A stretch of DNA of 64,000 bases from Candidatus Omnitrophota bacterium (GTDB lineage Bacteria > Omnitrophota > Gorgyraeia > Tantalellales > Tantalellaceae), in contig JBAROK010000007.1 in assembly GCA_049642065.1 (NCBI GenBank), forward strand, positions 2,134-66,133. Direction: 5' to 3'. Positions 9,001-26,272 of this stretch are shown here, piece by piece; the stretch's first letter is position 1; each line of letters starts with the position of its first letter. The translations under genes were made by a program, and so were the position numbers. A model generated the notes under the pieces. The model saw only the letters and a program-made list of their open reading frames with translations. It did no database searches and was not told where the DNA came from.

Positions 9001-12000
9001 CATCCGTAAGATGGAAGAGAAGCTTGAAGAAGTCAAAAAAGAACTGGCGGAAGCCGAAAAGAAAGAAGATCTTGAAAGAATGTTCAACAGGAAAGACGAG
9101 ATGGTGGATTTAGAAGAAGCGCTTGGGCGCCGCGGGTTAAGGACGTTCTTTATGAATTGGCGGTTCAGGATACTGATAATTAAAGCTCTCGGTGCGGACT
9201 GGGGATCTGTCAGCGCGATGAACGGTTACAGGATAGGGCAGGAACTTGCGCGTAACGATTTCTTTACTGTTATCATGACCCGCATAAATTATTTCAGGAA
9301 CCGCAATCCGATTCCGTCTCGCACGGATATTGGAGCTGTATATAGATATTATCTGGCGACATGGAGACCCGGAAAACCCGTTTCTTTCGAGAGGTTCAAG
9401 AGGCTTGTTAAGGTAGTAGAAGAGAGCGGTGTAATGAAAGAAGCGGTCATAGAAAAAACCGCAGCTAAAACATCTGATATAGCCGCGGACCAAAGAGAAG
9501 ATGCTCCTGCACGGATGGAGGCTAGACGCCGTCCTTGGATAGTTGTTCTATTCGTATTGACTGCTTTATCCGCTTTACTGTTCTGGATAACGTATAAAAA
9601 GATGTTCGAAAGTTTTCTTAAGAGCGCCAAACAGGGTACTGTCTTCAAGATGGACCTTTTCACCGATATATTCGACAGAAAAGATCTCCTGCGTAAGCTG
9701 GTAGCATCTGGTAAAGAAGTTACCGTGGGCAGGATCCCGGGTACGCATAAATATCTTTTCCGCATGGGAGACAAGAAATATACCACAACGGAGCTTGGCG
9801 AAGAGTATGCCGAGTACATCCCCGAAGGGCACGTTCATCCTGCAGAAGGCACAGCGGAGGAAAGAGCGAACGCTTTTATGCCGAGCGACCATGACCTGCT
9901 TAAATCCCATGGAAACTGGCGTTACATAGTTTCTGAGCTGGGAATCACCTGGTATGCGACTGACGGTGCCGTTATTGAGACAGCAATAGAGGATTACGCG
10001 ACGTTCTGGCATTCTGCCTGTCACAGGTCCCTCGATTCCATCAAGAAGATGATGGATGAGCGATTTGACGTAAAGATAGATTTTGATCAGATGGATCTTA
10101 GTAAAACGAAAACCCGTACGGGGAGATCTCTTTTGTTCGGGAAAACAGCACTGTCCGAAAAACCGGAACGCCCCTCAGGAGATGTGCACCCATTCAGCGC
10201 ATCAGAAGCTTATAAGGGCGTAGTTGTAGCTTTTGCTGTAAGCGTAGTCATGGCGGCAATGTTCGCATCCAAACTGGTATTCAATGGATTTGCGGGGTTT
10301 GATACTATTGCTACTATTAGTGCTATCGTCGGTATTTACTCCATTTTTACAACAGCGAGATATTATTTACTTGGTAAAGCCACGTATTATGCGCTTTTGG
10401 CGGAGGAACTTTCTCCTCGCCAGGCGCATGTCCGTGCGATAGCCACATCTGACGGCTGGCGTCATCCCGCTTTCCATAAACTTTTATCTAAGGAGAAAGA
10501 GATCATTGAAATCCATGAATCGTATAAGAACCATCTTATGGGCATGATAATGATAATGCCGGGGTTCCTGCTTGTGAATTTTCTTTTAAAGAGAGGTGTA
10601 ACTGAGATCGCGGATAGGGATGAAAACAGGGATAAGGTGGTTGAGCAGAGAGATTTCAGCAACCTCAGTGTGTATTTGAATAATCTCAGGAGCGAGAACG
10701 AACAACTGATATCTCCTGTACCTGTGATACGGGAAGTGGTAGAGGCCGGTTCAAGTCAGGTAAAGCAGCTCGAGGTGGGCAGGTCCGCGGAACTAGAGCT
10801 TAAAAAATCAAGGCAGGGACAGGCGGCAAGGGAAGAGCCTTCCCCGTCACAGAAGAAGATCGTGAGGAACTGGCGGTTCAGCGTGGAGCCGAAAGGGATT
10901 TTATACGGACAGGTAGAAGTAGAAGTGCTTGATAAGGTATCACAGGATGTTGTGAGCAAGGTGTATTTTCAGGATGCGCTGGAGATGATGAAGAATCTTG
11001 CCGGTGAAAGGCTCTTGTGGACTAATCCTACCTCAGCCGATAAGAGCAAAAACCTTCATTTTCACCTCTATAGGGAAAAAACCCCCTTGCCTGTAGAAAA
11101 TCATGAACTTGAACCATTATGCGAGGATAAAGATGGTGAAGGCGTCATATACACGGTCAAGGATTATCCGGACGAAGATCATCCCATAGCGGCTTTTGTG
11201 GTGAAGGGGACCCTTTCTCAGATCAATTTGATGAGCGCGAGGTGTTACGATATTGAAAAGATATTGCGTGCTAACGGTCAGACCGCCGATAAGCTTTTTG
11301 TGGAAGGGGAAGATGGAGAGATAAAAGTATATTTCTATCCCCGGAGAGCCGGTTACGCCAAGATATTTGATAGCGATAAAGCGCGTCGCCTGATCGGCCC
11401 GGTCTCGCTCAGCGGGTTATGGTCATTTGCTAATCAGAAGGATTATAGCCGTTTCACTAAGGAAGATCTGTATGGCGTACTGTCGAAAGTGGCGGTGCTG
11501 TACAAGAGCAGGAATTTTCAGAGGATAAGTGATGCCATAGTAAGGAATTTCCGCGAGGCGGAAGGTGCAGGCATACTCCCGCCCAGCGTTAGTTTCAGGT
11601 TATTTTCAGATTCACCTTTCGCTGAGGAAAGAAAAGAACCGGAAAACCTGGATGAAAGGATTCTTAGAAGGAAGAAAGTACTAGACGCTCTTTATGAGGA
11701 CGGAGTAAGAAGGGTCAACTTCACGTTTACTATCCCGACTGCCGGGATGGAGAGCGAAGACGAATGGATAATATTACAGCAGGCCCTAGAGCATGCCAAA
11801 TGGAAAGGCATGACTTCCGTGCTTTCAATACGCAATATAGTGCACAGGATCAGTGTTATTGAAAAGCAATGGGCACGCGTTGAGCAGTATATATTGCCAT
11901 GGGTGGATAAGATAAGTCTTAACGCTCAAGTGCAGAACGAGAACCTTGATAAGGCGTTACGTATTTTCGGACAGAATTGCAGCAATAAATCTATAGAGAT

Positions 12001-15000
12001 ATATACTTGTGTGAACGACCGGAACAAAGACAAAATTGAATCGCTTGCCAGGTTTATGCGGGAGTATATTGGTTCTTTTAATACGGTAGAGTGGGAGATA
12101 AGCAGGGAGAATATGGTCAGAGGCAATGATGCTATAAGCGAAGATGATTATGTCCAGTTGACCAGTAAGCTGAGAGAAGCGCATCCTGGATTACCGATTG
12201 ATTATGCCGTTTTAACAAGAGAAGAAACAAATCTCCATGTGTATAACGACGGTAAATTAGCTATAAAAGATGAGGGTGCCTTAAAGAATGTGGGAGACCT
12301 TTTCATCCCGGATACGCTTAAAGACAAGAGTAACCAGTCTGTTTTTCGAAGAATAACAGAGAATATCAGTGTGCAGTCTACTTACATACCGCGAAAAGAC
12401 GAAGTAACGGCCCTTCCTTCCACGTATGTGGCCAGTACCCGTGAAGAGTTTACGAAAGCGATAAATAAAATGCAGGCAAAGACACTTTTGCCTCATATAG
12501 AATGGGAAACAGAAGTTGCAGGCGCTATCGGTTATGTAATAGGAATGACAGACAAAGAGATAGAAATATTGGCTCTCGCCATACAGGCGCATCATCTCGG
12601 ACATATTCCCCGGGCAAAGAACAAAAAAGAATTCGAAAAAATGCTTGCCGTTCTTAAAAAAGCATACCCGCCGGACCATGACCTTAAAGGAGGCGAAGTA
12701 TGGCACATTAGAGACGCCATAAATAGATTGTTTGCTGCTGAGGGTGGCGAAGGTAAGACCGAACCGCAAAGATTCGATATATTTCGCGCAGAAATGGCTA
12801 GCCTTCTGGGTAAGAAGGACCTTACTAGTGACCAGAAAGCGATCGCCAGGTCGATGCTAGATTCAAAAGCGTATATGCAGGAAGTGCTGAAAGAGAACAA
12901 GATGAAGCTTCCAGCAGATTTAAGGATATTAACAGAATATTACGGCAGGCACGATAGGTATACTGAAGCTCGCTCCCGGGAAGAAGATCGGTTCAGGATG
13001 GAGCTATCCATAGACCCTGATAGAATGGCCAAACTGATAGCTATTTCCAGGATCGCTTCGACATTCGTTAACAGGATAGACGAATCGGTGCGTAGTCTGA
13101 GGGGAGAAGCGGGCGATTCTATGCCGGAAATAATAAGTTTTATAGTAGATAATCTCAAGAGAGATGGTGAAACAGGCGATAATATTCTTGAAGCTCTTGA
13201 TGGGCTTATTGCCCTTATCAGGGAACAGGATAGTACCATACTTTCAATAGCGAACCGGGCCAGAGGCGGGGATGAGGGACTGATGATTGCCAAATCAGAT
13301 AGGTCGTTCTTGAGGTTCCTTCAGAAAGGTGTTGGAAAGGTCAGAAACAAAAGACAGAATATGCGGATCATAGAATCGTTCAGACGCTATGAAAAAGGTA
13401 TTGTCGCTGAAGATTATTACCGATGGGCTATTGCAGCAGGGATCGTGAGTGGTTTTCTTGGTCTGATAAGCTTGTTTACGGGTTCGATGTGGGTAATAGG
13501 GGTTACCTGCTACAGCTTATGGGCTCTGGGGCGTTATTATTCCATAGGCAGGGATATTGAAAGAGGGACAGGTGCGGTACAACTGGATAAAGAACTCGCC
13601 AAAAAGACTCCTGTGGTCAAAATACGCCCGGATGGCTTACTTGAAAGGGATGAGAAGATATGCAAAAGTCTTCCTCCGTTTACCAACAGGATGCTTAAAA
13701 TACACGAAATTTTCGGGATGAGAATATCGGCGATGATATTCACACTTCCGATAGTAGGACGTATAATCACGAACACGTATGTCGAGATGAAACGGCTCAA
13801 CATGTGGATGGATTTCACGATACGAAAGAACCGGCCGCTTGTCACGTACGATGCTTTTAACCCAAGCCGCGTGAGGGGAAGAAGAGATCAAATGGACTTT
13901 GAAAATGGTTCGTGGAAGTGGAGAAGAGGTGACGGTCTTGCGCTTATAGCTGATATCGGGGATGACCTGAGGAGAAGGATAGAAGAAGTGCAGGAAGCGC
14001 TGAAAAAAGTAGTACCCGATGCCGAAAAACTTTTCTTAATGGAACCGGAAAGGTTGCACATAACCGTGGCAACGCTGACAAAAAACACTACCAGCGTTGA
14101 TACAAATCCAGAAAGAAGGGCAAAAAGGGAGTCCTTGATCAGGGAAACTAAGAGTCGCGTGTCTGCCTTAGGTAGTGGCGGGATAGAAGTCAGTTTTAGT
14201 CTTAATGATCTGACTATTTGGGATAATGGAGATATAGCTATACTGGGTAGGATGGAGAACCGGGGTTTAGACGAGATAAGAACCAGTTTAGACGAGTTTA
14301 ATTTAAGTGTTCATAAAAAAGATATAGTACACGTTACTGTTGGCAGGATATTTGATGAGGATATATCTGTCGATACGTTCAATGAAATAAGGGATGTATT
14401 AGAAAAGTTCCGTAACGGTAAAACCGAGGGTGATAAGAAGAAATTTTTTACGATGACTCCGGAGCTCTTTATCTGGGATCAGGCAGGGAAGACGGACGAC
14501 AAAAAGTACATACACATCCCGCGCACTAAAAAATCGGGCAGAGACAGTAAAAGACTGAGTAAGCTGGGCGAACCGAAAAGGCGCGATCTGAGTGGGGTCG
14601 CATCGAAAGAAACGAATCCTCTCATTGAGCGGCTTATTAAGGAAGGCAAGATAGTAGAGCTTTTTGAACAGAATGGCCAGCTTGACGCTTACAGGGTTAA
14701 ATGGGTTGAAGGATACCAGCCCGGCAGGGTGCAGGAAGAGGTGTTCGGTGAGGAAGTAGACGTGGATGAGATGTTCACAAGGTCGCAACAGGATAACATG
14801 CTCAGGTGGATGCGTCTGCACGGATTACCTGATAGTCGCGGCGGAGTGCATTTTAGAATAGCCCTCGATAACGCGGCTTTAGGCTGGACCGGAGACGAGG
14901 AACATTCCAACATAAGCCATGCAGGTTACCGCGACGGATGCATTTATATAGGTGAGCGTCTGCTCGCTTCCATATTTACCGACCCAGACGATCCATTAAG

Positions 15001-21000: not shown

Positions 21001-24000
21001 GATAAAGGTTATAGCAAGCGGGTCTATGTCAGAAGGAGTGTTTCCCCACAAGTTCAGCGACGAAGTCCAGGATGTGCTGCTTTATGGCACTAAACTTAAG
21101 GGCATAATCGCTAAAGGACAGGCGAACCTGTTCACGCTTTCGGCCCGGAACAAGATCAGCGTGCCGGTAGTGGTAATGTGCCTGTCTAAATCCAGGACGT
21201 CGAAAAAGATAACGGGTATAGATATAAAAGAGAATGAAGACGGCAGTAAACTGTTTCCTCCGATGATAGCGGTAGTGCCTGCGGGAGAGAATATCGCTAA
21301 CTGCATCGGAAGAGGCGTATTCGGAGGAAAATTAACGCGTTTTGGCAAAAAAGATGAGGGTGACTCTAGCACAGGCGATACACACGCTTTTACCGCACGG
21401 GACGGCATGAGATGGGCAAAACGGTTTTTAACTGGAGCAGCTTTATTTACTGTTGTCTCAGCAATAGCGGCTATAGGCTTTGTTCTGCATCTGGACCACT
21501 TACCGTGGGGTTTTGTAATAATCTTTGCCGGGGTAGACGTGGTGCTTGCAATGATCTCTTTGGAGTATTATCTTCTTGGGAAGGAAGCTTATAAGGCAAC
21601 GGTTAAATATATTTTTGAAGGCAGGGATTCAAGGGATATGCTTGAGGAAGATGCCGTTTCACAAAAACAGGCTATGGATACAAAGATTGCGGAACATCAG
21701 GCGAACAACATCATAAAATATCATCCGGCTTTCAGGTATCTTTCAGAACATGCTCAGGAAGCCGTAAAGATACACGAGTCGTTTGCGAGCCACAAGTTGG
21801 GCATGTTAGCCATGGTACCTGTGCTTGGTAGGATACTGTGGTTGAAACTGAGAGATGTGCATGACAGGGATATGCTCATACACTCCGATTATTCTAATAT
21901 AGAACAGGTGTTAAGGACGCAGCTTGAAAGAAACGTGGATACTGAGTTCCTGAAAGAAGCTTACCGAAAAGGAGCGAAGGAAGAGCCGATAGAAGGGTCT
22001 AGGATCCTTAAGGTTACTGACCGTTCGGGAGATCCTGATATTAAACGTCAGCAGGGATTCCTGCGGTATGAGCGTACAGTCAACAAAAGATGTACGTTCT
22101 GTAATATCCCGGACCTCTCAACAGAAGTCCACAGGTCAAAGACAGCAGAATGGGCTTTTTCAGTCGAACCGTCTCCGGTATTCAGTTCGCAGATGATAGC
22201 GATAAATTCAAGGCACATAGACCAGGGTACCATGGGGCCGGAAGTTTATTATGACATGTTCCAGATGCTTAAGAATCTTAAGGGATGGCAGATGAGCTGG
22301 CCCGGCAGGCTTAGCACCAGCCATCCGGATCATTTTCATGTCCATATGTTCGAAAGAGACAAGAACTCTCCGGTCGAAGAATACGATATGCAGCCGATAT
22401 GCAGGGACAGAAAAGGCGAAGGTGTGGTTCATTTGATAAAAGACTATCCCGACAGGGACCATGCTATAGCTGCTTTTGCCATAGCAGGGAGCATCAGGAA
22501 CGCTGCTGTATTCGCTAAAAGATGCGCTGACCTGGAAGCAATAATAAAGAGCGCCGGATATGAGGTAGACAAATTCATCACTAAGGGCGCGAATGGCGCG
22601 ATAAAGGTGCTTTTCTATCCGAGGACCGCTTCTTACATGAAAATAGGGCCCTCAGGCCGCGGGAGGTTAACCGGGCCTATTGAATTGAGCGGCATATGGG
22701 TGACTCAGGATGAGAAAGAAAGAGATGCGTTCAGCCTCCGGGATGTGCATGATATTCTTTCAAAGACCACGCTCAGGCTTTACAGCGACAGTTTCCAGGC
22801 ACTTGAGGATCAGATAAAGAGACATTTTTATGAAGCTGAGGGGATAGGCCTTTTACCGTCCAGTATGGATCTCATGGTAACGAATAAATGCAATTTGAAC
22901 TGCCCCGTTTGCTGGGGATCTTACATGCCTAAGCACAGGATATTTGCTCCGGATAACGCTGATATTGAGTGGGTGGATTTCAAGGAGAAAAAGATAAAGT
23001 ATCGTGGCACCGGACAGGAACGGGTGGAGAAGTTCGAGGATAACCAGAAAACGGCTCATGAGCTGGAAGTGATCAGGAGCAAGCTCAGCATGTACTATTG
23101 CACAGAACCGGAATCACCCGAGATAGAGCATATAAGGTTCTTTAGCCTTGCCGGTGACGGTAAGAAGGTAGAGAAGGTCACCGTCAGGTTCACTGAGGGC
23201 AAGACCGACAGTATGGCGCTCGGCAGCGACGAATATAATGATGCAGTTCTAATGGTTCAGAAAAAGATGATCGATGTCATGCATAAGAATGGTATGCGCC
23301 GCATGGTGTTCACCGGAGGAGAGCCTTTACTCGAAGATAATCTCGCGGAACTTTTAAAGTACGCTAAAGAAAAAAATATAACGACATGGCTTTTTACCAA
23401 CGGCCTTCTGATGGACGAAGAAAAAGCGGACCAGATCATGCCGTATGTGGATATGATATCGCTGTCTCTTGACGGTCATGATGACGCGACGAACTCAAGG
23501 AACAGAAAACCAGGTCATTTTGTTGCGGTGCTAAAAGTCCTTAGGATATTAAGCCGCAAATATCCCGAGAAAGAAGTGCAGATACTTACCGTTGTTACGG
23601 AGAGGAACAAAGCATATATCCGTAAGATAGGGTTCCTGCTCAGGCAGGTTACCAAGGGCCTTAAAAGTTTCCAGTGGAAACTTAATTATTACAAGCGCAT
23701 AGGCCGGTCACAGCACGAGAGAGACATAAAGAACGACGTATTTCTAATGGAGTATGGTAAATTCGTGAGCCTTGCAAAGTCCGTGCAGAAGGAGTTCACG
23801 GATATCAAGGTACGATACAGCCCGCCCGACCACGATAAGGCGTATTTATTTGTATTTCCTGACGGTACATTGTCAACGACGGTAGGCCCGGAATATCTGG
23901 AACTCGGCAACATACTTGATGCGGATACGCTCAGGGAGGAGGATAACCTTAAGATATTCAAGACCATAACCGACAATATCCGCAAACGCGCTATCTATAT

Positions 24001-26272
24001 TCCCAAGAAGGGTGCGAAAGCCATACCTGACTTCAAGAGGCGCAACGTATTAAGTGAACAGGGCTTGAATGTAACGGAAGATTTGCTCAGGGAAGCCGGA
24101 CCGGACATATACGAACATACTATGCGCATGCAAAAAATAGCTATACTAATTGCTCGTCGCTTGATCTCTAAGGGGACCAAGATAAGCGAAGAGTCTATAA
24201 GGCTTTTAAGCAGGGCAGCTTTGGCACATGATATAGGGGCAAGAGAAAAATACAATCCGGCTGTTAAGGATATACGTAAAAAGATCACCGCTGGCATACA
24301 TGAGCATCCCGATGACAGGGTAGAAATGACCCAGGTATCCCTAGATAAATGGGCAAGCACAAGAGCTCTCAAATATAAGAACGTGCCCAAAGCAGAGCTG
24401 ATAGAGACTTTAAGGATAGCCAAGGAAACGGGTAATTATTATTCTGTTTATCGCATGTATATAAAGTATGTAGCCTTAGGCAAAAAAGAGCGAGAATCTC
24501 TTACTATGGAAGAAGAAACGGTGACCAGGAACCTTTTCAACCATGGTGAAAGGTCCGTTGAAATATTGCGTGAAAACCTGATCGAAGTCCCGGCAGAATT
24601 CGAACTTCTTGTTAAATACCATCACGATTATAACGGTCTTGAAGATAGGCTCCGAGAGATGGCGAAAGAGGATAGGATCACGCCCGAGAAGAGCGAAGAG
24701 ATAAAGCTTCTTTCTACTATTCTGATAGTATCGGATGTATTCGAGCAGGGCAATAATTACATGCGTCTTGTGGAAATAGCCGGAAGGGACGAGGTCGAAA
24801 GTTTCGGGAAGACGTTCGACACTTTTAATGGTTTCATGTGGAAGAGATTCCATCAGACAGAGCATATAAGCGATACAAGGGCGATAGAGGCGCTTAAAGA
24901 TCTCGTGGTAAAGGATGTCCCGTTATCAGTTAGCGGCATGGGTTCAAGGCCAATTGTTGATAATGATCTGGCGGTTATAATAGCTGAAGCCAGAAAGGTT
25001 CAAGGAACGCAGAGGAACTGGCTTACTTCCGAAGACAGGGCTTTTCAGCTGCGGGAACTGGCCAGGCGCAATCAGCGGACTCATGCTCCGTTGACATTCG
25101 AAATAGCCGTAGGGTTACCTTCTAAACTGTATGACCGGCTTGATGAGGCTGCGCTAAATAAACTAAGAGATGTTCCGGGCATAGCCTCTATCGTAAAGGT
25201 AGAGTCATCAATGAGGGTAGAATCGATGATGGATGAACTTGCCCATAAGACCGAAGGTACCAGATGTATCAACGCGCTTATAAGCGAGGATGTGATAAGT
25301 GATACAACTGATATCTCTAAGGGAATTAAAGAGCTTGAGAAAGTGCTTTATGACTTTGTTAGTAAAGCAACCAAAGATATCCTGGCGCTTACTGATCCGG
25401 AAGTAACTGATCTGACTGAAGAAGGCGTAAAGGCAATAGATGATATCAATGAGCTTGAGGCTATTATGGGAGTTCTTATACGCGCATTACCGCATAACGA
25501 GTCCTATTTGCTAAGTGAAAAGAGCCTGAGGCAGATAAGGATAGAAAATGCGTACAGGGCATTTGTCGCTCAGCGCTCGGAAGAGACAAACCGTGTTGAA
25601 TACCTTGAAAAGATGGTTGAGAATACTGGTAAGCACTATCTGGCGCATTTCGCGGATGGACAGGCCATAATGGAGGGCAAAGGTCATATTGTGGTACCTC
25701 CGGGTCTTGAGATCCGCAAGAGACGTGAAATGCAGGGAGTGAACCGTATGATGGACGCTAATACGGACAAGTTCTTTATAGTAGCGCCGGAAAACGTCAA
25801 AACAGACGATGAGAAACAGCAGTTTAAGAGCAAGTTAATGGAAACATGGATGCTGGACGGTGTTGTATCGGAAGGAGATGTCATCATACTCGAGAGAAGA
25901 GGAATAGATAAGAATTACCGTGCCAGTGAGATCTATAAGATGGTACAGTCGGAATACAAGGATTCCACTAGCACAAATACGGGTATCAGGTGCATCAAAG
26001 GGCAGCTTGAATACGATAACGCAGCGGAAAAAGAGAACATTCTGCAGGTAGGTATGTCGCAAGATGCGGTAAGCACTGTGAACCAGTATGAGGTGTTCGT
26101 GAACCTACTGCTCACGCGTGAAGACGGCGATATGGGGTATACGATATCTGGATTACAGCAGCTGACCAAGGGGCTTTATATGTACCTGCCGTTTGCCAGG
26201 CCGATAAATCTGGAGAAAGAGATAAGGCATTATCATGACAGGTTCGTCAAAGAGGTACTCATAAAGGCCTAA
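2..26272 (+). CDS. Giant multidomain protein, 5'-partial. The frame is open from the window edge, so the ORF-track TTG at 65 is not a real start. At least 8,756 codons in the window; stop TAA at 26270-26272.
   Basis: 26.2 kb uninterrupted reading frame (frame 2) with no in-frame stop back to nt 2. Many recognisable enzyme motifs along its length (see the domain features). Followed by a strong intrinsic terminator at 26362-26390. Confidence 0.9.
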   Translation, partial: SDFDQKVRIIGEWLFPAINDELNKLGLENIEDVDEFGNQVVKERLFKERKEAETSGRFKRGEDGELALDDTYEEVKVVKEFSQMLMDLEAGRVTGIQPGYLMYIAELVEYLEGSRQLNFYRKGTIGNFRVDECTVPLKGENHTFYVLRFRDTGKVLFGVAVKGDKWIKVNGRDANVENKLGKIYELLKSEGYTLVAELADFKMATREELKSRLAELTALAKDEEVEKRFPIYQLGTKGIEGGFIQTQIASPGKVFGIISIDTPGKKDLQQEWSSKIYVPGKGYIAPDDTSKASKAAGAIADSGATNNHANITLRREGFASVIGMGSHQMVVEGNVIRIKCNVPSTEDVIRGNETRTIRHYKEGEVVLRDGDLVMIDASEDSSDGVVVAVGKTQSEEKDFSAEAKELFGVLRDIELGGPLQEGSQYSQLYKRTVGRITGAETKIRDMRLLNMRRILKDASSDKTVNLAKMVAEILIDTSMITDSDKARRTLETLLRSLDDNVRGEVEEFIKLLFGKKVYQIEKEIHAVLGEVGISNVKKNPSSTLLYSNTEHILLEIRDLNDKMALVAEMIPGVDYDPGKGLFAEEADIIRKRFNEALEYLRSKKLDELSAYHSEYRIAEIERILKAADINEEKWIELSDELETLRRTSRGWMLDKIERDLSKVRRDIIKAECLGCDLSSPEMLTLQMEVNRMVAVANIKTMRQKGPGRYVIDLSELGSIYRQVAGNKAAEVAEVMKISESADSYTYRTDSGLTEIRNILKDGFDQVPSGFVISSLAVYSVIQENSAIRPDIEALISGNVAPEEKIEKLTELLLAKGKIPEFLKEMIAEKYSSMAGESKEPIVITRSTSQMEDLLDETRPGVRKAGKYLSFECVKGIDQIKKNIFKHLAHFWVTEGDVNDLHPILVQEMLFDLHSSFVANSVDSAEKNWNVANIDAVLGLGRGVVEGGEGIAIHTFKADNEGRITGRIVPPHNRMWAPAPSGIGIKLVDVPAEMKAARALTEEQVAKIAKLARAFQKYYRFPVNIEGGVTKDGKIVIFQVRPDSTLKSNSYSMSGTGIHSPPVEKIIALRKQYLAAENPSAEELGKVDPAAISELIDTNINELYQARKSESEVRDLEYKLVERLVQFKGYHYDRAREVVMDLRLYHRRSDVVDKLDELFFEELKQILRERLFEEGEFNRDREKISYFVENFHNLQEIREGKDIPNGNLFKSKPEYRDAVITWEERIDRYAYRYFTNKVAWDTAKTNAEKVIFNNVLVRHLSEKAKGEMYAFIRYLVPRLYENIPPLKRLRRPTIVLIGGTTASGKSTSARSVAKNLGMPYYFSADPIREVQRKLIPKDTNLSPADKRSSFQEDPAEKGFIEHGSSVIRSLNECARWAVNENRSMVIEGVHLIPGLIDPKLFEEANVVQIIVTVADEKGHAARIEKRGKEESGRGGAGRYLKDFDKIRKANDLFDEQARSHGVVRVDNSSDFTRTISEVLFYAAGPYKDKAKQGPDERLRAMLDNKVTREKVRTSSSLGKYVKSVYTLGESDKLYIDASEIEPGVIDKSEIEALRNAIVQTTSSGALVIRDFDRLVAEGRSLLDFAASIGFDDVIIGQEALFARTAKEVEPILQGLTAYAAELNVKVLIENLPTTGNAEISIGLKDAYGKGVQDIDMEAIVLADENGEPAGMIEDGDAVFFACKRGEREIQITLPFVAEKIGQKFTDLVVKTYEKIKFGIMTLYHDMFDPLPVAFRPMRQKDPLVDVLSGAGKRFLLSAESEKINHITYFFKGQSREPMEGEEIFSVDSPPKDEHLDRPELSLPALTKGITERMETGNFDFVGINLANCDVIGHYYDPTDVEKNKEIIQIRREAAEAVDEHLGILLEAAKKQGYSVIVTADHGVGEVAVKKGKGVGKHTTNLVPFIVVDPDTTKASVISIAETGRLGDVAPTVLDLMKMQKPEEMTGQSLLVDYPENADPKKVMLIVMDGWGIGAESEDNPIHIANTPVLDSLYKEYLNTRIKASQEEVGLLAGDSGNSEAGHLNLGAGRIVLGDDIRIVNAVKGEPIEGDTTLDENAAILETIAHANEHGSNLHLIGLLSDASSHGRVAHVLELLKLAKRKREEFREEGKGDGFKEVFMHMITDGRSTESGTAPVLLLDMQKQMSRIGLGKIVDCVGRNLALDRAYNWGKTKKAYRLFAMGEGKQVGPVGIAEQLLRDIPELGVAYNWDNHTLSGDRPGFVGSLDVRERVGAIFVTDTTVKDEEKNIFGAFDGHGDIPFFVYRMPKAAKTPEKKKEEETILSAETAQAIIDKCQDKLKATRKSLEAIHAYQYQRVVKLAEDPTLHFDKARKNLNGLFAEIEKILNSPDLERRQRKEAIRALMEGFIGLFGWQTIQSVREHLERDDLPVDILDGVNTYEDLKNALNENAKVNIPDEKIVNYRSKITRRNIEMRELAIEYIELVEEQKRLYNEEREAIREAYVEITGEELVDEEKLHVAARKAYPEYVLDVPHLKDTDKPTFVNVAGVMGVNSADVAHAIAERSGIPSRMHSGMLRGVISGIWPEDFISATDNFNIGKDIKDAYVKAFNKEAKAALEVILTGEGNISRAEAEAILKKFAENWKQAILEPIYSDWVRLTNQGTKQAIKRLLKEKSSQVFVGVFPGLLDPAHHEDANIVSIIVKVEDINEHWDGFLVSAKARGVDNPSDCMAEFFANRILQDHLTDLGRDLILPEVRETAVVDSSNMESAVRNAVNRVIDPIADRYVEVPNEIKEKAELEEKVVLAKYTEAWVKYLKIPQISIAWLLGWAVLRSVSPEAAIAFSIASIFGVIFMVIASKDRLFLEKAVASAVLAVGVSTFVPGCSEAKKDPRPEPRPNAAAASDGDKPGNKESQEKPFEIKPGENIPARDRNKEKKPSEDTMKAVSGLIDNVLAHTDRDRTEDYRKNAKFLMIMTMMVESDQFASSVQYGGGPARGLAQFEPATAKYVRDQVNKLTENKRFKKALQVTFGEKWEEKIFGLSSEEIIRKMEEKLEEVKKELAEAEKKEDLERMFNRKDEMVDLEEALGRRGLRTFFMNWRFRILIIKALGADWGSVSAMNGYRIGQELARNDFFTVIMTRINYFRNRNPIPSRTDIGAVYRYYLATWRPGKPVSFERFKRLVKVVEESGVMKEAVIEKTAAKTSDIAADQREDAPARMEARRRPWIVVLFVLTALSALLFWITYKKMFESFLKSAKQGTVFKMDLFTDIFDRKDLLRKLVASGKEVTVGRIPGTHKYLFRMGDKKYTTTELGEEYAEYIPEGHVHPAEGTAEERANAFMPSDHDLLKSHGNWRYIVSELGITWYATDGAVIETAIEDYATFWHSACHRSLDSIKKMMDERFDVKIDFDQMDLSKTKTRTGRSLLFGKTALSEKPERPSGDVHPFSASEAYKGVVVAFAVSVVMAAMFASKLVFNGFAGFDTIATISAIVGIYSIFTTARYYLLGKATYYALLAEELSPRQAHVRAIATSDGWRHPAFHKLLSKEKEIIEIHESYKNHLMGMIMIMPGFLLVNFLLKRGVTEIADRDENRDKVVEQRDFSNLSVYLNNLRSENEQLISPVPVIREVVEAGSSQVKQLEVGRSAELELKKSRQGQAAREEPSPSQKKIVRNWRFSVEPKGILYGQVEVEVLDKVSQDVVSKVYFQDALEMMKNLAGERLLWTNPTSADKSKNLHFHLYREKTPLPVENHELEPLCEDKDGEGVIYTVKDYPDEDHPIAAFVVKGTLSQINLMSARCYDIEKILRANGQTADKLFVEGEDGEIKVYFYPRRAGYAKIFDSDKARRLIGPVSLSGLWSFANQKDYSRFTKEDLYGVLSKVAVLYKSRNFQRISDAIVRNFREAEGAGILPPSVSFRLFSDSPFAEERKEPENLDERILRRKKVLDALYEDGVRRVNFTFTIPTAGMESEDEWIILQQALEHAKWKGMTSVLSIRNIVHRISVIEKQWARVEQYILPWVDKISLNAQVQNENLDKALRIFGQNCSNKSIEIYTCVNDRNKDKIESLARFMREYIGSFNTVEWEISRENMVRGNDAISEDDYVQLTSKLREAHPGLPIDYAVLTREETNLHVYNDGKLAIKDEGALKNVGDLFIPDTLKDKSNQSVFRRITENISVQSTYIPRKDEVTALPSTYVASTREEFTKAINKMQAKTLLPHIEWETEVAGAIGYVIGMTDKEIEILALAIQAHHLGHIPRAKNKKEFEKMLAVLKKAYPPDHDLKGGEVWHIRDAINRLFAAEGGEGKTEPQRFDIFRAEMASLLGKKDLTSDQKAIARSMLDSKAYMQEVLKENKMKLPADLRILTEYYGRHDRYTEARSREEDRFRMELSIDPDRMAKLIAISRIASTFVNRIDESVRSLRGEAGDSMPEIISFIVDNLKRDGETGDNILEALDGLIALIREQDSTILSIANRARGGDEGLMIAKSDRSFLRFLQKGVGKVRNKRQNMRIIESFRRYEKGIVAEDYYRWAIAAGIVSGFLGLISLFTGSMWVIGVTCYSLWALGRYYSIGRDIERGTGAVQLDKELAKKTPVVKIRPDGLLERDEKICKSLPPFTNRMLKIHEIFGMRISAMIFTLPIVGRIITNTYVEMKRLNMWMDFTIRKNRPLVTYDAFNPSRVRGRRDQMDFENGSWKWRRGDGLALIADIGDDLRRRIEEVQEALKKVVPDAEKLFLMEPERLHITVATLTKNTTSVDTNPERRAKRESLIRETKSRVSALGSGGIEVSFSLNDLTIWDNGDIAILGRMENRGLDEIRTSLDEFNLSVHKKDIVHVTVGRIFDEDISVDTFNEIRDVLEKFRNGKTEGDKKKFFTMTPELFIWDQAGKTDDKKYIHIPRTKKSGRDSKRLSKLGEPKRRDLSGVASKETNPLIERLIKEGKIVELFEQNGQLDAYRVKWVEGYQPGRVQEEVFGEEVDVDEMFTRSQQDNMLRWMRLHGLPDSRGGVHFRIALDNAALGWTGDEEHSNISHAGYRDGCIYIGERLLASIFTDPDDPLRKLILDEDEYNHLRDRDFDCRADKSRYEARLKSVFSRVESILREPPRKYDLYLCTSDEKAVSVYDGEDRDNPQSIHWGNFMPRDPIYVVGNMKPVKVSAGLYIANDFNISSSNIKMKVWMGPADNVNRWSEIRLERVYTNELEKGTEYLFAGMLPSYFKGDFTFKYSLDGGKTWKWANRGENDNRRIERKRTDTIIHEPMGYRVDEKIVTPDYKKHRTIRLYQGNEDLSDIVDAASSADEFFWGKGIHDSDNGHSYYRTNFGALEFRSSAEAKIIHMGDILSSENEYEGQLLIYYDDIQNAIVMRVNSNPGEALEHDAVSDPQERKWNRAVITIPLDHEGRAKRVEHEQTVMGISRAGLSILLRHAGINRKFPKLFRLIQQELVLYHVDDYMFLKHMYGNGMTPVEALNTVMDHPQSVSPEQISYIENMVKYTKSRVLGHLALRCLGKLVDEGMYDRDEYLKYARYTSEKDVLEGMATAERVIRQDDSFLKQMGINPEKVKSIFMRWFINGPNKTIYRVTCNMSNGEERVFAIEVKSPLGSAQGYSMLQIENAMRIWKKKSDKGYDYVPHVFVVKRVDDYRPKILTAPIKGLNIDREGEFHIESLDIESSRVVYDDILVVAREFVEGYQLPDYLAYGTVSAEETRRATVAGLKAFLKLWKDGQDPATGRGPFPMRPAPRDVIVYKIGETYHGVVAEMDSLREGFAIREVIRALQSCGYDKKDVISAAREVLAENERAIITENYGKYKSERVTEMFFAADKGSELHAVQTKGMDDEDAHRIAVKIANTAYELDEDKKRASFTKIRGALRYLSEKVNRNTNIPDDLRKKLSWKIDIFLRQNFWQNVKYYPVRAGRADVFEMLEGFVTDGTVYLVEGFIDDRDLSREENIAGVILYQILSELCSEERMEQLPSKPDYWDSVKGPEGVQNLILGDREEFERKIAKYARKEHIRIAMEDKVLGRNLVTYQGLKNLPEARKNAEEFLETICRIMETEKPEIKGDEDLAEYLRKRFGVRKFVIGGGKGTRFSPEGIMVKQLFKPDNYNTNIKQSRISSAFGMLEDVIVVDAITIFNLLHQDKELLAEHKTTMFFNVRENLVNLMDSGYINREQCKELVGKIKNIIDNELVYTHRSDHLRDLGSAMESAARAVEDVLGKKNERAQFVTDKISYAVFKVIMAIGEELIDENKKDELFGKNCIVILDSGDGHGSAYVEALRALNYSGKLDQARYSVIVHADSPGWGLDEYPNYVFISYLKTVNTVSPQVQDMPKVTIAAKNPRDKRAQGRARIDTITVENVGEVPVGVREWNELSYQEKKESREKAKAQDPTWFTNANILICDTMWAYDKKDVLESEYRHELGRMGKMKRRPAEYWSSDYLNIAAREYLQLIKKDPETAPLTRLVFIGQDAPNANKTLGRALEYRDALQKMILRKIRRMGVEVDKDTTVAISSTDVGPNFDLDKIIEDIFGDNLEGPAKFGNTKLRGAIHLDATVVVQKGAILDGRKKDVSLTGNCVVERGVELHGVVRADYLFDKNELLPTNKFYITGRQFRDSTTEATVVDNVDFRELGLIVDDRTRIWIAKKDKGESDLSVLKKIFGSDHPDSGRVTDQIFVYGDVVLDSTVRVENGTMLDGRVDEVILVGDTHVHKGVNLKSVKANDTTFAGWSDLDIYHYRQPTHDGNVGIRNSEFDNSYIEIRAEVINSMIRNSYVANGAMVEESDVADEVVVNGEEVRDRRLNRKDDALSVSVTAEEDGKVNYMPGAFRLEELPNEDIEDILGYQIKSARKLYMKFISDPILLERMVQETEQFIRSSVTPRFTIQQIRQYLIAKIRDNCDKEPDVSKFRPLVEDLRAHAKLWMANAIEIDINDEAASKAFFKELSILATRANFIDFSIDPKMFDIDQLVETDEAQRKKFTDLVDEFADSDLAIDGYSEFEKMVFSPEKGVFLFFTDNIGETEIDAVMWEFLARMGHTVVIAAKDGFSYADIDVKGVEETVNAHPSLCKHRDEGRIKVIASGSMSEGVFPHKFSDEVQDVLLYGTKLKGIIAKGQANLFTLSARNKISVPVVVMCLSKSRTSKKITGIDIKENEDGSKLFPPMIAVVPAGENIANCIGRGVFGGKLTRFGKKDEGDSSTGDTHAFTARDGMRWAKRFLTGAALFTVVSAIAAIGFVLHLDHLPWGFVIIFAGVDVVLAMISLEYYLLGKEAYKATVKYIFEGRDSRDMLEEDAVSQKQAMDTKIAEHQANNIIKYHPAFRYLSEHAQEAVKIHESFASHKLGMLAMVPVLGRILWLKLRDVHDRDMLIHSDYSNIEQVLRTQLERNVDTEFLKEAYRKGAKEEPIEGSRILKVTDRSGDPDIKRQQGFLRYERTVNKRCTFCNIPDLSTEVHRSKTAEWAFSVEPSPVFSSQMIAINSRHIDQGTMGPEVYYDMFQMLKNLKGWQMSWPGRLSTSHPDHFHVHMFERDKNSPVEEYDMQPICRDRKGEGVVHLIKDYPDRDHAIAAFAIAGSIRNAAVFAKRCADLEAIIKSAGYEVDKFITKGANGAIKVLFYPRTASYMKIGPSGRGRLTGPIELSGIWVTQDEKERDAFSLRDVHDILSKTTLRLYSDSFQALEDQIKRHFYEAEGIGLLPSSMDLMVTNKCNLNCPVCWGSYMPKHRIFAPDNADIEWVDFKEKKIKYRGTGQERVEKFEDNQKTAHELEVIRSKLSMYYCTEPESPEIEHIRFFSLAGDGKKVEKVTVRFTEGKTDSMALGSDEYNDAVLMVQKKMIDVMHKNGMRRMVFTGGEPLLEDNLAELLKYAKEKNITTWLFTNGLLMDEEKADQIMPYVDMISLSLDGHDDATNSRNRKPGHFVAVLKVLRILSRKYPEKEVQILTVVTERNKAYIRKIGFLLRQVTKGLKSFQWKLNYYKRIGRSQHERDIKNDVFLMEYGKFVSLAKSVQKEFTDIKVRYSPPDHDKAYLFVFPDGTLSTTVGPEYLELGNILDADTLREEDNLKIFKTITDNIRKRAIYIPKKGAKAIPDFKRRNVLSEQGLNVTEDLLREAGPDIYEHTMRMQKIAILIARRLISKGTKISEESIRLLSRAALAHDIGAREKYNPAVKDIRKKITAGIHEHPDDRVEMTQVSLDKWASTRALKYKNVPKAELIETLRIAKETGNYYSVYRMYIKYVALGKKERESLTMEEETVTRNLFNHGERSVEILRENLIEVPAEFELLVKYHHDYNGLEDRLREMAKEDRITPEKSEEIKLLSTILIVSDVFEQGNNYMRLVEIAGRDEVESFGKTFDTFNGFMWKRFHQTEHISDTRAIEALKDLVVKDVPLSVSGMGSRPIVDNDLAVIIAEARKVQGTQRNWLTSEDRAFQLRELARRNQRTHAPLTFEIAVGLPSKLYDRLDEAALNKLRDVPGIASIVKVESSMRVESMMDELAHKTEGTRCINALISEDVISDTTDISKGIKELEKVLYDFVSKATKDILALTDPEVTDLTEEGVKAIDDINELEAIMGVLIRALPHNESYLLSEKSLRQIRIENAYRAFVAQRSEETNRVEYLEKMVENTGKHYLAHFADGQAIMEGKGHIVVPPGLEIRKRREMQGVNRMMDANTDKFFIVAPENVKTDDEKQQFKSKLMETWMLDGVVSEGDVIILERRGIDKNYRASEIYKMVQSEYKDSTSTNTGIRCIKGQLEYDNAAEKENILQVGMSQDAVSTVNQYEVFVNLLLTREDGDMGYTISGLQQLTKGLYMYLPFARPINLEKEIRHYHDRFVKEVLIKA
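880..1180 (+). other. PEP-utilising enzyme mobile (phospho-His) domain-like region within gene 1.
   Basis: AIADSGATNNHANITLRREGFASVIGMG...GDLVMIDASEDSSDGVVVAVGK resembles the GG.TSHAAI.ARE.G.P.VVG...DG..G.V pattern of PEP synthase / PPDK / rifampin-phosphotransferase His domains. Confidence 0.4.
2100..3130 (+). other. PEP synthase/PPDK N-terminal (ATP-grasp-like nucleotide-binding) domain-like region.
   Basis: VAGNKAAEVAEVMKI...FDQVPSGFVISSLAVY matches GGKgAnLgE...vPpGFviT. The C-terminal PVNIEGGVTKDGKIVIFQVRPDS matches the DIEWa.ddgklyiLQsRPvT end of PPDK_N. Confidence 0.45.
3865..4440 (+). other. 2-phosphoglycerate-kinase-like P-loop kinase domain.
   Basis: Walker A IVLIGGTTASGKSTSARSVA, then FSADPIREVQRK and MVIEGVHLIPGLIDP. 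This parallels the GG.SGvGKST / tD.iRevmR / iiEGvHlvP pattern of 2PGK-type kinases. Confidence 0.5.
4850..6800 (+). other. Cofactor-independent phosphoglycerate mutase (iPGM/GpmI)-like domain, circularly permuted: the C-terminal ~260 residues come first, then residues 1-~300.
   Basis: Segment 1: KRFLLSAESEKINHITYFFKG...GINLANCDVIGHYYD...VTADHGV...NLVPFIVV...GDVAPTVLDLM..PEEMTGQSLL, corresponding to iPGM residues ~325-510. Segment 2: MLIVMDGWGIG...NTPVLDSL...GDSGNSEAGHLNLGAGRIV...LHLIGLLSDASSHGRVAHV...ITDGRST...VGRNLALDRAYNW, corresponding to iPGM residues ~5-235. The residue ~250-300 region (DGDAVFFACKRGERE and GAIFVTDTTVKDEE) occurs in both segments. Confidence 0.7.
7484..8060 (+). other. 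Second, degenerate copy of the 2PGK-like kinase domain (Walker A lysine/serine lost).
   Basis: FVNVAGVMGVNSADVAHAIAERSGIP aligns with IVLIGGTTASGKSTSARSVAKNLGMP (GKST -> VNSA). VFPGLLDPAHHEDANIVSIIVKVEDINEH aligns with VHLIPGLIDPKLFEEANVVQIIVTVADEKGH. Confidence 0.5.
8330..8520 (+). other. Two or three transmembrane helices within gene 1.
   Basis: IAWLLGWAVL..., AIAFSIASIFGVIFMVIAS and AVASAVLAVGVSTFVPG are hydrophobic stretches. They are followed by the Pro/Lys-rich linker KKDPRPEPRPNAAAASDGDKPGNK. Confidence 0.5.
8690..9400 (+). other. Lytic transglycosylase (SLT/lysozyme-like) domain.
   Basis: LMIMTMMVESDQFASSVQYGGGPARGLAQFEPATAKYV fits the SLT signature E-S-x-F...S.aGA.GLMQ..P.TA with a catalytic Glu. 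Downstream GYRIGQELARNDFFTVIMTRINYF and AVYRYY are consistent with SLT family C-terminal motifs. Confidence 0.55.
10200..12990 (+). repeat. Paralogous module A of gene 1 (TM/YYLLGK segment, then HIT/GalT-like, radical-SAM-like and HD-like domains). This is the catalytically degenerate copy.
   Basis: Aligns along its length with module B (21430-24680): TTARYYLLGKATYY / SLEYYLLGKEAYKA; RHPAFHKLL..IEIHESYKNHLMGM / YHPAFRYL..VKIHESFASHKLGM; GEGVIYTVKDYPDEDHPIAAFVVKG / GEGVVHLIKDYPDRDHAIAAFAIAG; VDKISLNAQ / VDMISLSLDG. Module A lacks the Cys pair, has LHFHLY instead of HFHVHMF, lacks CxxxCxxC and GGEPLL, and has AHHLGH instead of AHDIG. Confidence 0.6.
13900..14400 (+). other. 2H phosphoesterase (LigT / cyclic phosphodiesterase)-like domain.
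   Basis: Two H-x-T-x motifs ~95 residues apart: ERLHITVATL (14054-14075) and IVHVTVGRIF (14326-14346). Each is preceded by hydrophobic strands, which is the hallmark of the 2H family. Confidence 0.35.
15300..15560 (+). other. Possible carbohydrate-binding (CBM20/21-like beta-sandwich) module.
   Basis: MKVWMGPADNV...YLFAGMLPSYFKGDFTFKYSLDGGKTWKWANRGEN resembles the W...FKY..DG..W.W..G.N pattern of starch-binding CBMs. This is a weak call. Confidence 0.2.
18020..18700 (+). other. Sugar-1-phosphate nucleotidyltransferase (NTP_transferase) domain.
   Basis: FVIGGGKGTRFSPEGIMVKQLFKP matches the GGxGTRLxPlT..PK.L signature of glucose/mannose-1-phosphate nucleotidyltransferases. Confidence 0.45.
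19380..20230 (+). other. Left-handed beta-helix (hexapeptide-repeat) region following the nucleotidyltransferase domain.
   Basis: Runs of [LIV]-G-x-x-x-x hexads: GNTKLRGAIHLDATVVVQKGAILDG, LTGNCVVERGVELHGVV, GDVVLDSTVRVENGTMLDGRVDEVILVGDTHVHKGVNL. Confidence 0.4.
20700..21200 (+). other. DUF89 (ARMT1/damage-control sugar-phosphate phosphatase)-like domain.
   Basis: VFLFFTDNIGETEIDAVMWEFLARMGHTVVIAAKDG and later IIAKGQANLFTLSAR resemble the DNxGE...D and KGxxNyE.L signatures of DUF89 proteins. Confidence 0.3.
22020..22700 (+). other. HIT-superfamily (GalT / Ap4A-phosphorylase-like) nucleotidyltransferase/phosphorylase-like domain.
   Basis: Cys-x-x-Cys (RCTFCN at ~22088-22110) upstream of the histidine triad HPDHFHVHMF (22322-22351). 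This is the arrangement seen in the GalT branch of HIT proteins. Confidence 0.4.
22870..23650 (+). other. Radical SAM domain (SPASM/MoaA-like core) with an unusually long insert between the Cys triad and the Gly-rich SAM motif.
   Basis: TNKCNLNCPVCW (CxxxCxxC; 22888-22914); ~130 aa later VFTGGEPLL (23315-23332); then YVDMISLSLDGHDD. Confidence 0.55.
24100..24760 (+). other. HD-domain phosphohydrolase-like domain.
   Basis: EHTMRMQKIAILIARRL...RAALAHDIGAR (H...HD) and downstream LLVKYHHDYNG, as expected for the HD superfamily. Confidence 0.45.

Follow-up and report, generated by a model that had tools for sequence, protein, structure and literature searches.

Giant genes combining very long open reading frames (ORFs), many transmembrane (TM) segments and a divergent SecA-like domain have been described for Candidatus Omnitrophota and other bacteria of the Planctomycetes-Verrucomicrobia-Chlamydiae (PVC) group (West-Roberts et al. 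2023, bioRxiv 10.1101/2023.11.21.568195), and the giant proteins of Omnitrophota often contain radical S-adenosylmethionine (SAM) domains and architectures repeated by old duplications (2026 preprint 10.64898/2026.06.07.730766). The window analyzed here, 64,000 nucleotides (nt) from a Candidatus Omnitrophota bacterium, showed all of these features. It is nearly filled by two plus-strand ORFs, p1 and p2, of at least 8.7 and 12.2 thousand amino acids (aa), respectively, with many TM segments, a SecA-like domain in p2, a radical SAM domain and internal repeats. The present analysis concerns two paralogous modules of p1, designated A and B, which share the order of a membrane-anchor element (termed TM/HES), a HIT domain of the GalT/Apa2 branch, a viperin-like radical-SAM barrel and an HD domain. 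Module B retains the cofactor sites of all three enzyme domains and module A has lost them, and A was found to be one of a clade of such cofactor-less modules (A-type) that is sister to the B-type clade.

For the barrel, the closest described family is viperin/pVip. NF038283 (viperin) was the top NCBIfam match of the module B barrel and pVip was its top PADLOC match (81.6 bits), and a sequence search of the PDB likewise returned viperin-like matches. The NCBIfam scores were 75.4 bits in the window and 91.7 bits in an orthologous ORF, L001, a range of 75-92 bits that lies far under the cut-off of 180, and by its sequence the domain is viperin-like rather than a demonstrated viperin. It differs further in sitting between a HIT-like and an HD domain within a protein of >8,700 aa, and its counterpart in A is without iron-sulfur (Fe-S) and SAM motifs. 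The HIT-like domains were closest to the GalT branch of HIT proteins (Apa2 Ap4A phosphorylase, DUF4931, DUF4922 and class I/II GalT), with similarity at or below the Pfam thresholds, but the A-type lacks the CxxC motif and the first histidine of the triad (His1). Among HD phosphohydrolases (PF01966), the B domain passes with the pattern H..HD..HHD, whereas the A domain, although homologous and of the HD-type helical fold, has an incomplete metal site with a variable HH for HD and YGR for HHD. The NCBIfam entry TIGR04347 ("pseudo-SAM/SPASM protein"), compared by name, is alike in being a radical-SAM-derived domain without the cluster cysteines; here, in contrast, three fused domains without metal sites share a polypeptide with their intact paralogue.

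Neither paralogous pseudoenzymes nor repeated architectures within the giant proteins of Omnitrophota are new, and nothing in this analysis overturns what is known. What appears to be new is the HIT/viperin-like radical-SAM/HD cassette, its cofactor-less sister clade and the recurrent 150-aa TM/HES element that brackets the cassettes. None of these is described in the family libraries consulted or, judging from term searches of the two preprints, apparently in 10.1101/2023.11.21.568195 or 10.64898/2026.06.07.730766. The same searches returned no mention of HD domains in either preprint, of radical SAM in the former or of pseudoenzymes in the latter. A literature search on pseudo-radical-SAM enzymes and on viperin and HD fusions returned nothing specific.

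Modules A (aa 3379-4420) and B (aa 7122-8320) were collinear and could be aligned end to end, as the initial annotation of this DNA had proposed. With composition correction, BLASTP aligned the TM and HIT part over 499 aa at 30% identity (E=2e-64) and the radical-SAM and HD part over 522 aa at 23% identity (E=2e-23), and MAFFT gave 27% identity across 1,000 aligned columns. Profiles of the A-type and B-type modules compared with hhalign matched in every domain, at 100% for HIT (E=6e-65), 99.94% for radical SAM (E=6e-37) and 98.2% for HD (E=3e-14). The A-type barrel by itself was also compared, as a profile, with 60 stand-alone radical-SAM proteins from an independent collection, which it matched at 99.5% (E=1e-22). 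The similarity therefore extends beyond the TM and low-complexity segments, to which it might have been confined, and takes in all three enzyme domains. Exactly two copies of the module occur in p1 and none in p2. The pair was not seen when the whole of p1 was searched against itself by BLAST and emerged only from the direct pairwise comparison. The boundaries first given for both modules marked the right region but were slightly short, as A runs to about nt 13069 (the end of the HD-like domain) or 13324, and B to about nt 24739 or, at the end of the aligned module (aa 8320), 25024.

A recent duplication was rejected because blastn detected no nucleotide-level similarity between A and B. The codon usage of A equaled that of the rest of the ORF, at a distance of 0.09, whereas the wrong frames lay at 0.32-0.33. 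The 26-kb frame runs without interruption. From the codon usage and the lack of nucleotide similarity together, the duplication was deduced to be old, and A was read as coding.

The motif states of the two modules were mapped and agreed with those first reported. In radical SAM enzymes, the CX3CX2C motif binds a [4Fe-4S] cluster and the GGE motif after strand beta2 binds SAM. In module B, the CxxC pair (C7343 and C7346) and the HIT-like domain (aa 7356-7603) occupy nt 22091..22873 of the plus strand, the strand of all features given here, and include the motif HFHVHMF (aa 7423-7429, nt 22331-22351); the Pfam DUF4922 score was 20.9 bits, under the cut-off of 23.6. The viperin-like radical SAM domain (aa 7604-7975, nt 22874..23989) carries C7609, C7613 and C7616 together with GGEPLL and, at 58.1 bits against a Pfam threshold of 29.5, is a member of PF04055. 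The HD domain (aa 7976-8225, nt 23990..24739) has the ligands H8018, H8055-D8056 and H8186-H8187-D8188, conforming to H...HD...D, and scored 30.4 bits against a threshold of 22. The full series of motifs in B is CTFC, HFHVHMF, CNLNCPVC, GGEPLL, SLSLDG, H..HDIG and YHHDY, with the HD ligand pattern HHDHHD. By its motifs, B retains every cofactor site, namely, the presumed Zn site (CxxC and His1), the [4Fe-4S]/SAM site and the HD metal site, the Zn role being assigned by analogy with GalT. B is probably a working nucleotide-modifying cassette, and its substrate would be a nucleotide.

The B radical SAM domain also contains a 107-aa insert (aa 7625-7731, window 22937-23257) between the CX3CX2C loop and GGEPLL. 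This insert is common to the related proteins P0002 and P0005 and absent in the orthologues L001, P0001 and P0003.

In module A, the HIT-like domain (aa 3598-3845, nt 10856..11599) has no CxxC and reads NLHFHLY at aa 3663-3669 (nt 11051-11071). The radical-SAM-derived barrel (aa 3846-4110, nt 11600..12394) is without CX3CX2C and without GGE, having TIPTAGMESEDE where B has GGEPLL. In the HD-derived helical domain (aa 4111-4335, nt 12395..13069), H4144 is kept, HHLGH stands for HDIG and YYGRH stands for YHHDY, so that the ligand pattern is H-HH-YGR, compared to H-HD-HHD in B. No Cys motif of any kind, neither CxxC nor cluster cysteines, was found in A, and searches of Pfam, NCBIfam, PADLOC and PDB sequences with A returned no match. 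The A barrel accordingly falls outside the radical SAM family by its cluster motif, its GGE motif and its Pfam score, though it has the partial (beta/alpha)6 TIM barrel of that family, and the HD-like domain does not show the H...HD...D metal ligands.

The initial annotation had described A as having lost every catalytic motif. This was overstated, since NLHFHLY aligned without gaps to HFHVHMF of B and thereby retains two of the three HIT-triad histidines, the second and the third. The second histidine (His2) was the sole invariant histidine in the multi-copy alignments (H76 in A3 and A4, H68 in A5). Among 21 HIT-like copies spanning the motif, the upstream CxxC and His1 were present together in 12 of 12 and both absent in 9 of 9, while His2 was present in 20 of the 21. 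Within the A-type, His2 was kept in 9 of 10 copies and the third histidine (His3) in 8 of 10. Most invariant charged residues of the domain are kept in A alongside His2. The motif took the form HxHxQ, canonical for the GalT family, in two relatives (P0062 and P0098). Enzymes of the GalT family use His2 as the nucleophile and His1 to coordinate Zn (bioRxiv 10.64898/2026.09.13.751320). Taken with the co-occurrence of CxxC and His1, these roles suggest that the change in the A-type was the loss of a zinc site with the catalytic histidine spared. By this analogy, His2 of A would be the putative counterpart of the GalT nucleophile. Judged from the motifs, all losses in the A-type (Zn, [4Fe-4S]/SAM and HD metal) are of metal or cofactor sites.

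Word-indexed homologue searches with A and with B gave nothing, and an exhaustive HMMER search with a profile of both was used instead. It returned 437 matches, the best being giant proteins of 2-6 thousand aa, and those relatives bearing a name were all NCBI proteins from metagenome-assembled genomes (MAGs) of Candidatus Omnitrophota. A scan of species-representative genomes yielded L001 (CAZGQR010000010.1, labeled as an uncultured Planctomycetia MAG), an orthologous giant ORF with both modules. Its A' is 34% identical to A and its B' 53% identical to B, their motif states are the same as in the window and Pfam matches were found only in B'. P0001, P0002, P0003 and P0005 were collinear with p1 and carry both modules, and P0004 has two A-type modules in tandem.

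A motif table and a neighbor-joining tree were prepared for 16 near-complete module copies. The tree resolved two clades, the A-type with 10 copies from 9 giant proteins and the B-type with 6 copies. All 6 B-type copies have CxxC, H-x-H-x-[H/N/T] and H..HD..HHD, and the CX3CX2C and GGEPL motifs are intact in 4 of them. None of the 10 A-type copies has a B-type motif; instead, they share [KN]-L-H-[FVM]-H-[LFI]-[FY], HHLG and YYGRY, although the HH of HHLG is variable (CH, YH, YD or YN). Across the 65 HD-like domains of the family, the degenerate ligand pattern was restricted to the A-type. The B-type copies of P0003 and P0005 lost just the radical-SAM Cys and GGE motifs, from which it follows that the radical-SAM domain was inactivated more than once, and the loss across three domains of A need not have been coordinated as had been suggested.

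Retention of A under selection was assessed from per-region aa identity rather than dN/dS (the ratio of nonsynonymous to synonymous substitution rates), since the closest orthologue is only 34% (A) and 53% (B) identical and dS would be saturated. Identities to P0001 and L001, respectively, were 41% and 50% for the A HIT domain, 32% and 35% for the A radical-SAM-like domain, and 35% and 35% for the A HD-like domain. The corresponding values for B were 49% and 58% (HIT), 69% and 72% (radical SAM), and 46% and 48% (HD), and the background for the rest of the protein was 39-49%. The B radical SAM domain was therefore the best conserved part of the entire protein, and HIT was the best conserved domain of A. 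On these identities, the cofactor-less domains of A evolve somewhat faster than the protein average yet are clearly constrained. Conservation in both types was found at 65 positions, about half of them in HIT, including R3726, E3731, D3742, K3743, R3760, R3827, E3831 and E3833. Another 56 positions are conserved in the A-type but different or variable in the B-type, and 26 of these lie in the HIT domain; examples of A-specific conservation are WTNxxSAD, K3714, R3735, E3978, E4026, Y4029, R4102, H4177, R4183, Y4201-P4202 and D4266. A scan of metagenome contigs (metagenome_contigs) for close relatives of A found none.

The AlphaFold2 (AF2) model of A (aa 3590-4335) had a mean predicted local distance difference test score (pLDDT) of 83.9 and a predicted template modeling score (pTM) of 0.67. 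Three domains were seen in it, one rich in beta structure and with NLHFHLY on a strand, one a (beta/alpha)6 barrel of six units and one helical. The first of these has the HIT/GalT-type fold, and for the last, the fold search indicated an HD-type helical fold (PPX/GppA). A profile of 14 HIT-like domains found no real match among PDB sequences, and Pfam gave only three weak DUF4922 matches for the same 14; the family assignment of the HIT-like domains was based on the fold search. As modeled, the fold of A is preserved. The earlier proposal that A is retained rather than decaying was supported by the 10-copy clade with its shared losses and motifs, the identity to orthologues, the intact frame and the predicted fold. 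The radical-SAM-like and HD-like domains of A, being homologues of active enzymes that lack the catalytic or cofactor residues and remained under selection, would count as pseudoenzymes.

The TM/HES element, of about 150 aa, consists of a TM hairpin followed by RYFLLGK, SDGYRHPAF and LHESFxSHFxGMLAILPG, with the H-E pair and one Pro invariant. Three copies occur in the window. The first precedes module A (aa 3378-3528, nt 10196..10648; hidden Markov model [HMM] E=3e-39) and has the TM hairpin, RYYLLGK, HPAF and IHESYKNHLMGM; the second lies right after module A (aa 4447-4587, nt 13403..13825; HMM E=3e-20) and the third precedes module B (aa 7110-7275, nt 21392..21889; HMM E=3e-35). Including these three, 51 copies were counted among the 150 related proteins listed, L001 and the window, with up to 5 per protein. 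The AF2 model of the element had a pLDDT of 92.5; Pfam gave no match, and no Foldseek match in the PDB had an E value below 0.78. Elements in tandem are only 13-30 aa apart, with both flanks rich in K and R. Such short spacing implies that each element crosses the membrane an even number of times, which would place A and B on the same side, presumably the cytoplasm for both. A move of A outside the membrane, considered as the cause of its Fe-S/SAM loss, was rejected by the same spacing and flanks. Unlike B of the window, the B-type module of L001 (q1 aa ~3251-3321) has no recognizable TM/HES element (no YYLLGK, HPAF or HES), so the cassette does not strictly require its anchor.

It is proposed that p1 would be a giant membrane-anchored multi-enzyme protein of the Candidatus Omnitrophota kind with two ancient paralogues of a cassette of ~1,000 aa, composed of the TM/HES anchor, a nucleotidyl-transfer domain of the GalT/Apa2 branch of HIT, a viperin-like radical-SAM barrel and an HD phosphohydrolase. 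In the A-type sister clade, every metal and cofactor ligand would have disappeared prior to the divergence of the lineages sampled, while the three folds and the HIT nucleophile histidine were kept. The zinc-free HIT domain of A most likely still binds nucleotide and may still form a nucleotidyl-histidine intermediate, while the dead barrel and HD domain would act as structural or ligand-binding partners and not as catalysts. On balance, A is probably a selected pseudo-radical-SAM/pseudo-HD scaffold with a zinc-free HIT domain for which nucleotide binding is probable and a reaction is possible. The homology, motif states, clade structure, conservation and predicted folds come directly from the analysis; the zinc role of CxxC and His1, residual activity or binding of the HIT domain, a nucleotide as the substrate of B and the cytoplasmic location are inferences. 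The structural or regulatory pseudoenzyme scaffold envisaged in the initial annotation agrees with this as far as retention under selection is concerned, but its HIT domain may still be active, as His2 and most invariant charged residues are kept; a role of A as scaffold or regulator would be a further step. Several points weigh against the proposal. Selection was judged from aa identity, and the alignment behind the AF2 model was shallow, with 10 rows, 3 of them B-type. The equivalence of His2 to the nucleophile was based on the motif pattern and fold match and not on residue-level superposition, and two A-type copies lost His2 and/or His3 (LYLDIY in P0007 and LHGSMY in P0014). The barrel of B scored under the viperin family cut-off, and its substrate is not fixed by a family match. 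Finally, the zinc site of class I GalTs is described as essential (bioRxiv 10.64898/2026.09.13.751320), and its loss in the A-type could also kill the HIT domain.

This last point bears on the view of the initial annotation that all three domains of A, HIT included, are inert, in which case A would persist in the giant protein only as a spacer with a structural or regulatory function. The missing CxxC and His1, the absence of any match of A in the databases searched and the further decay of the HIT motif in P0007 and P0014 would fit such a spacer. It would also fit that p1 contains a second, P-loop kinase-like pair of alive and dead members (see below), as inert paralogues may then be common here. 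It was nevertheless deemed unlikely, because His2 and His3 persist in 9 and 8 of the 10 A-type copies, HIT is the best conserved domain of A (41-50%, compared to 32-35% for the others) and both types share many invariant charged residues. The 56 A-specific conserved positions and the recurrent HHLG and YYGRY motifs could alternatively reflect a new, metal-independent active site gained by the A-type barrel and/or the HD-derived domain. However, 26 of the 56 positions lie in HIT, the HH of HHLG varies, and the two domains in question evolve faster than the protein average and match no known family, so that a neofunctionalized enzyme is quite improbable. Neutral decay of a duplication relic, or a chance or low-complexity similarity, was excluded as having a negligible probability. 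The faster evolution of A than of B and the lack of DNA-level similarity between them are what would be expected of it, but not the composition-corrected E values of 2e-64 and 2e-23, a 10-copy clade with shared motifs, orthologues that are 32-50% identical, a 26-kb frame that is intact with normal codon usage (wrong frames differing threefold) and a confident fold prediction.

A more specific role for A as a metal-free nucleotide-binding partner of B was also considered, although it is distinctly unlikely. B would make a viperin-type, possibly chain-terminating nucleotide, and A would sense, sequester, hand over or detoxify this modified nucleotide by means of its viperin-like and HD-like pockets and its reactive HIT histidine. 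If so, A would serve as a regulator or immunity domain built into the giant membrane-anchored polypeptide that it shares with B, and TM/HES would be a new module punctuation, anchor or processing site. Apart from this partnership, the proposed pseudoenzyme scaffold with a zinc-free HIT domain offers a concrete and testable example of the growth of giant proteins in bacteria, with a whole three-enzyme cassette duplicated and a metal-stripped copy kept long-term. Should viperin-type nucleotide analogues be the product of the intact cassette, this would bear on the predatory or parasitic lifestyle proposed for Omnitrophota.

With regard to the remainder of the window, p1 spans nt 65..26272 (8,735 aa), its frame still open at the window's left edge, and p2 spans nt 26706..63335 (12,209 aa); both are on the plus strand, and base composition is uniform along the window. 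The Pfam matches near the C terminus of p1 are those of module B (DUF4922, Radical_SAM and HD). Outside the modules, p1 matched PEP-utilizers, PPDK_N, AAA_18, Metalloenzyme/iPGM_N, LigT (weakly) and an ARMT1-like family, a string of phospho-transfer enzymes. The P-loop kinase-like pair lies at window 3800-4564 and 7418-8317 (aa ~1246-1500 and ~2452-2751; BLASTP E=5e-10). Its dead member has AGVMGVNSAD at the Walker A position and no Pfam match, and its alive member has the Walker A sequence GGTTASGKST and matches AAA_18.

In p2, SecA_PP_bind and P-loop_SecA matches at window 34857-35879 (p2 aa ~2718-3058) are followed by about 10 hydrophobic segments forming a TM cluster at aa ~3369-3769. Internal duplications were found in p2 between aa 775-949 and 8590-8773 and between aa 1213-1505 and 1636-1997 (phmmer E=1.8e-39 down to 6e-14). 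The C-terminal ~390 aa of the two ORFs (p1 aa 8344-8735 and p2 aa 11822-12209; window 25094-26269 and 62169-63332) are homologous, with 27% identity (E=8e-26), and this domain, which is without a family match, also terminates P0004 and the L001 ORF.

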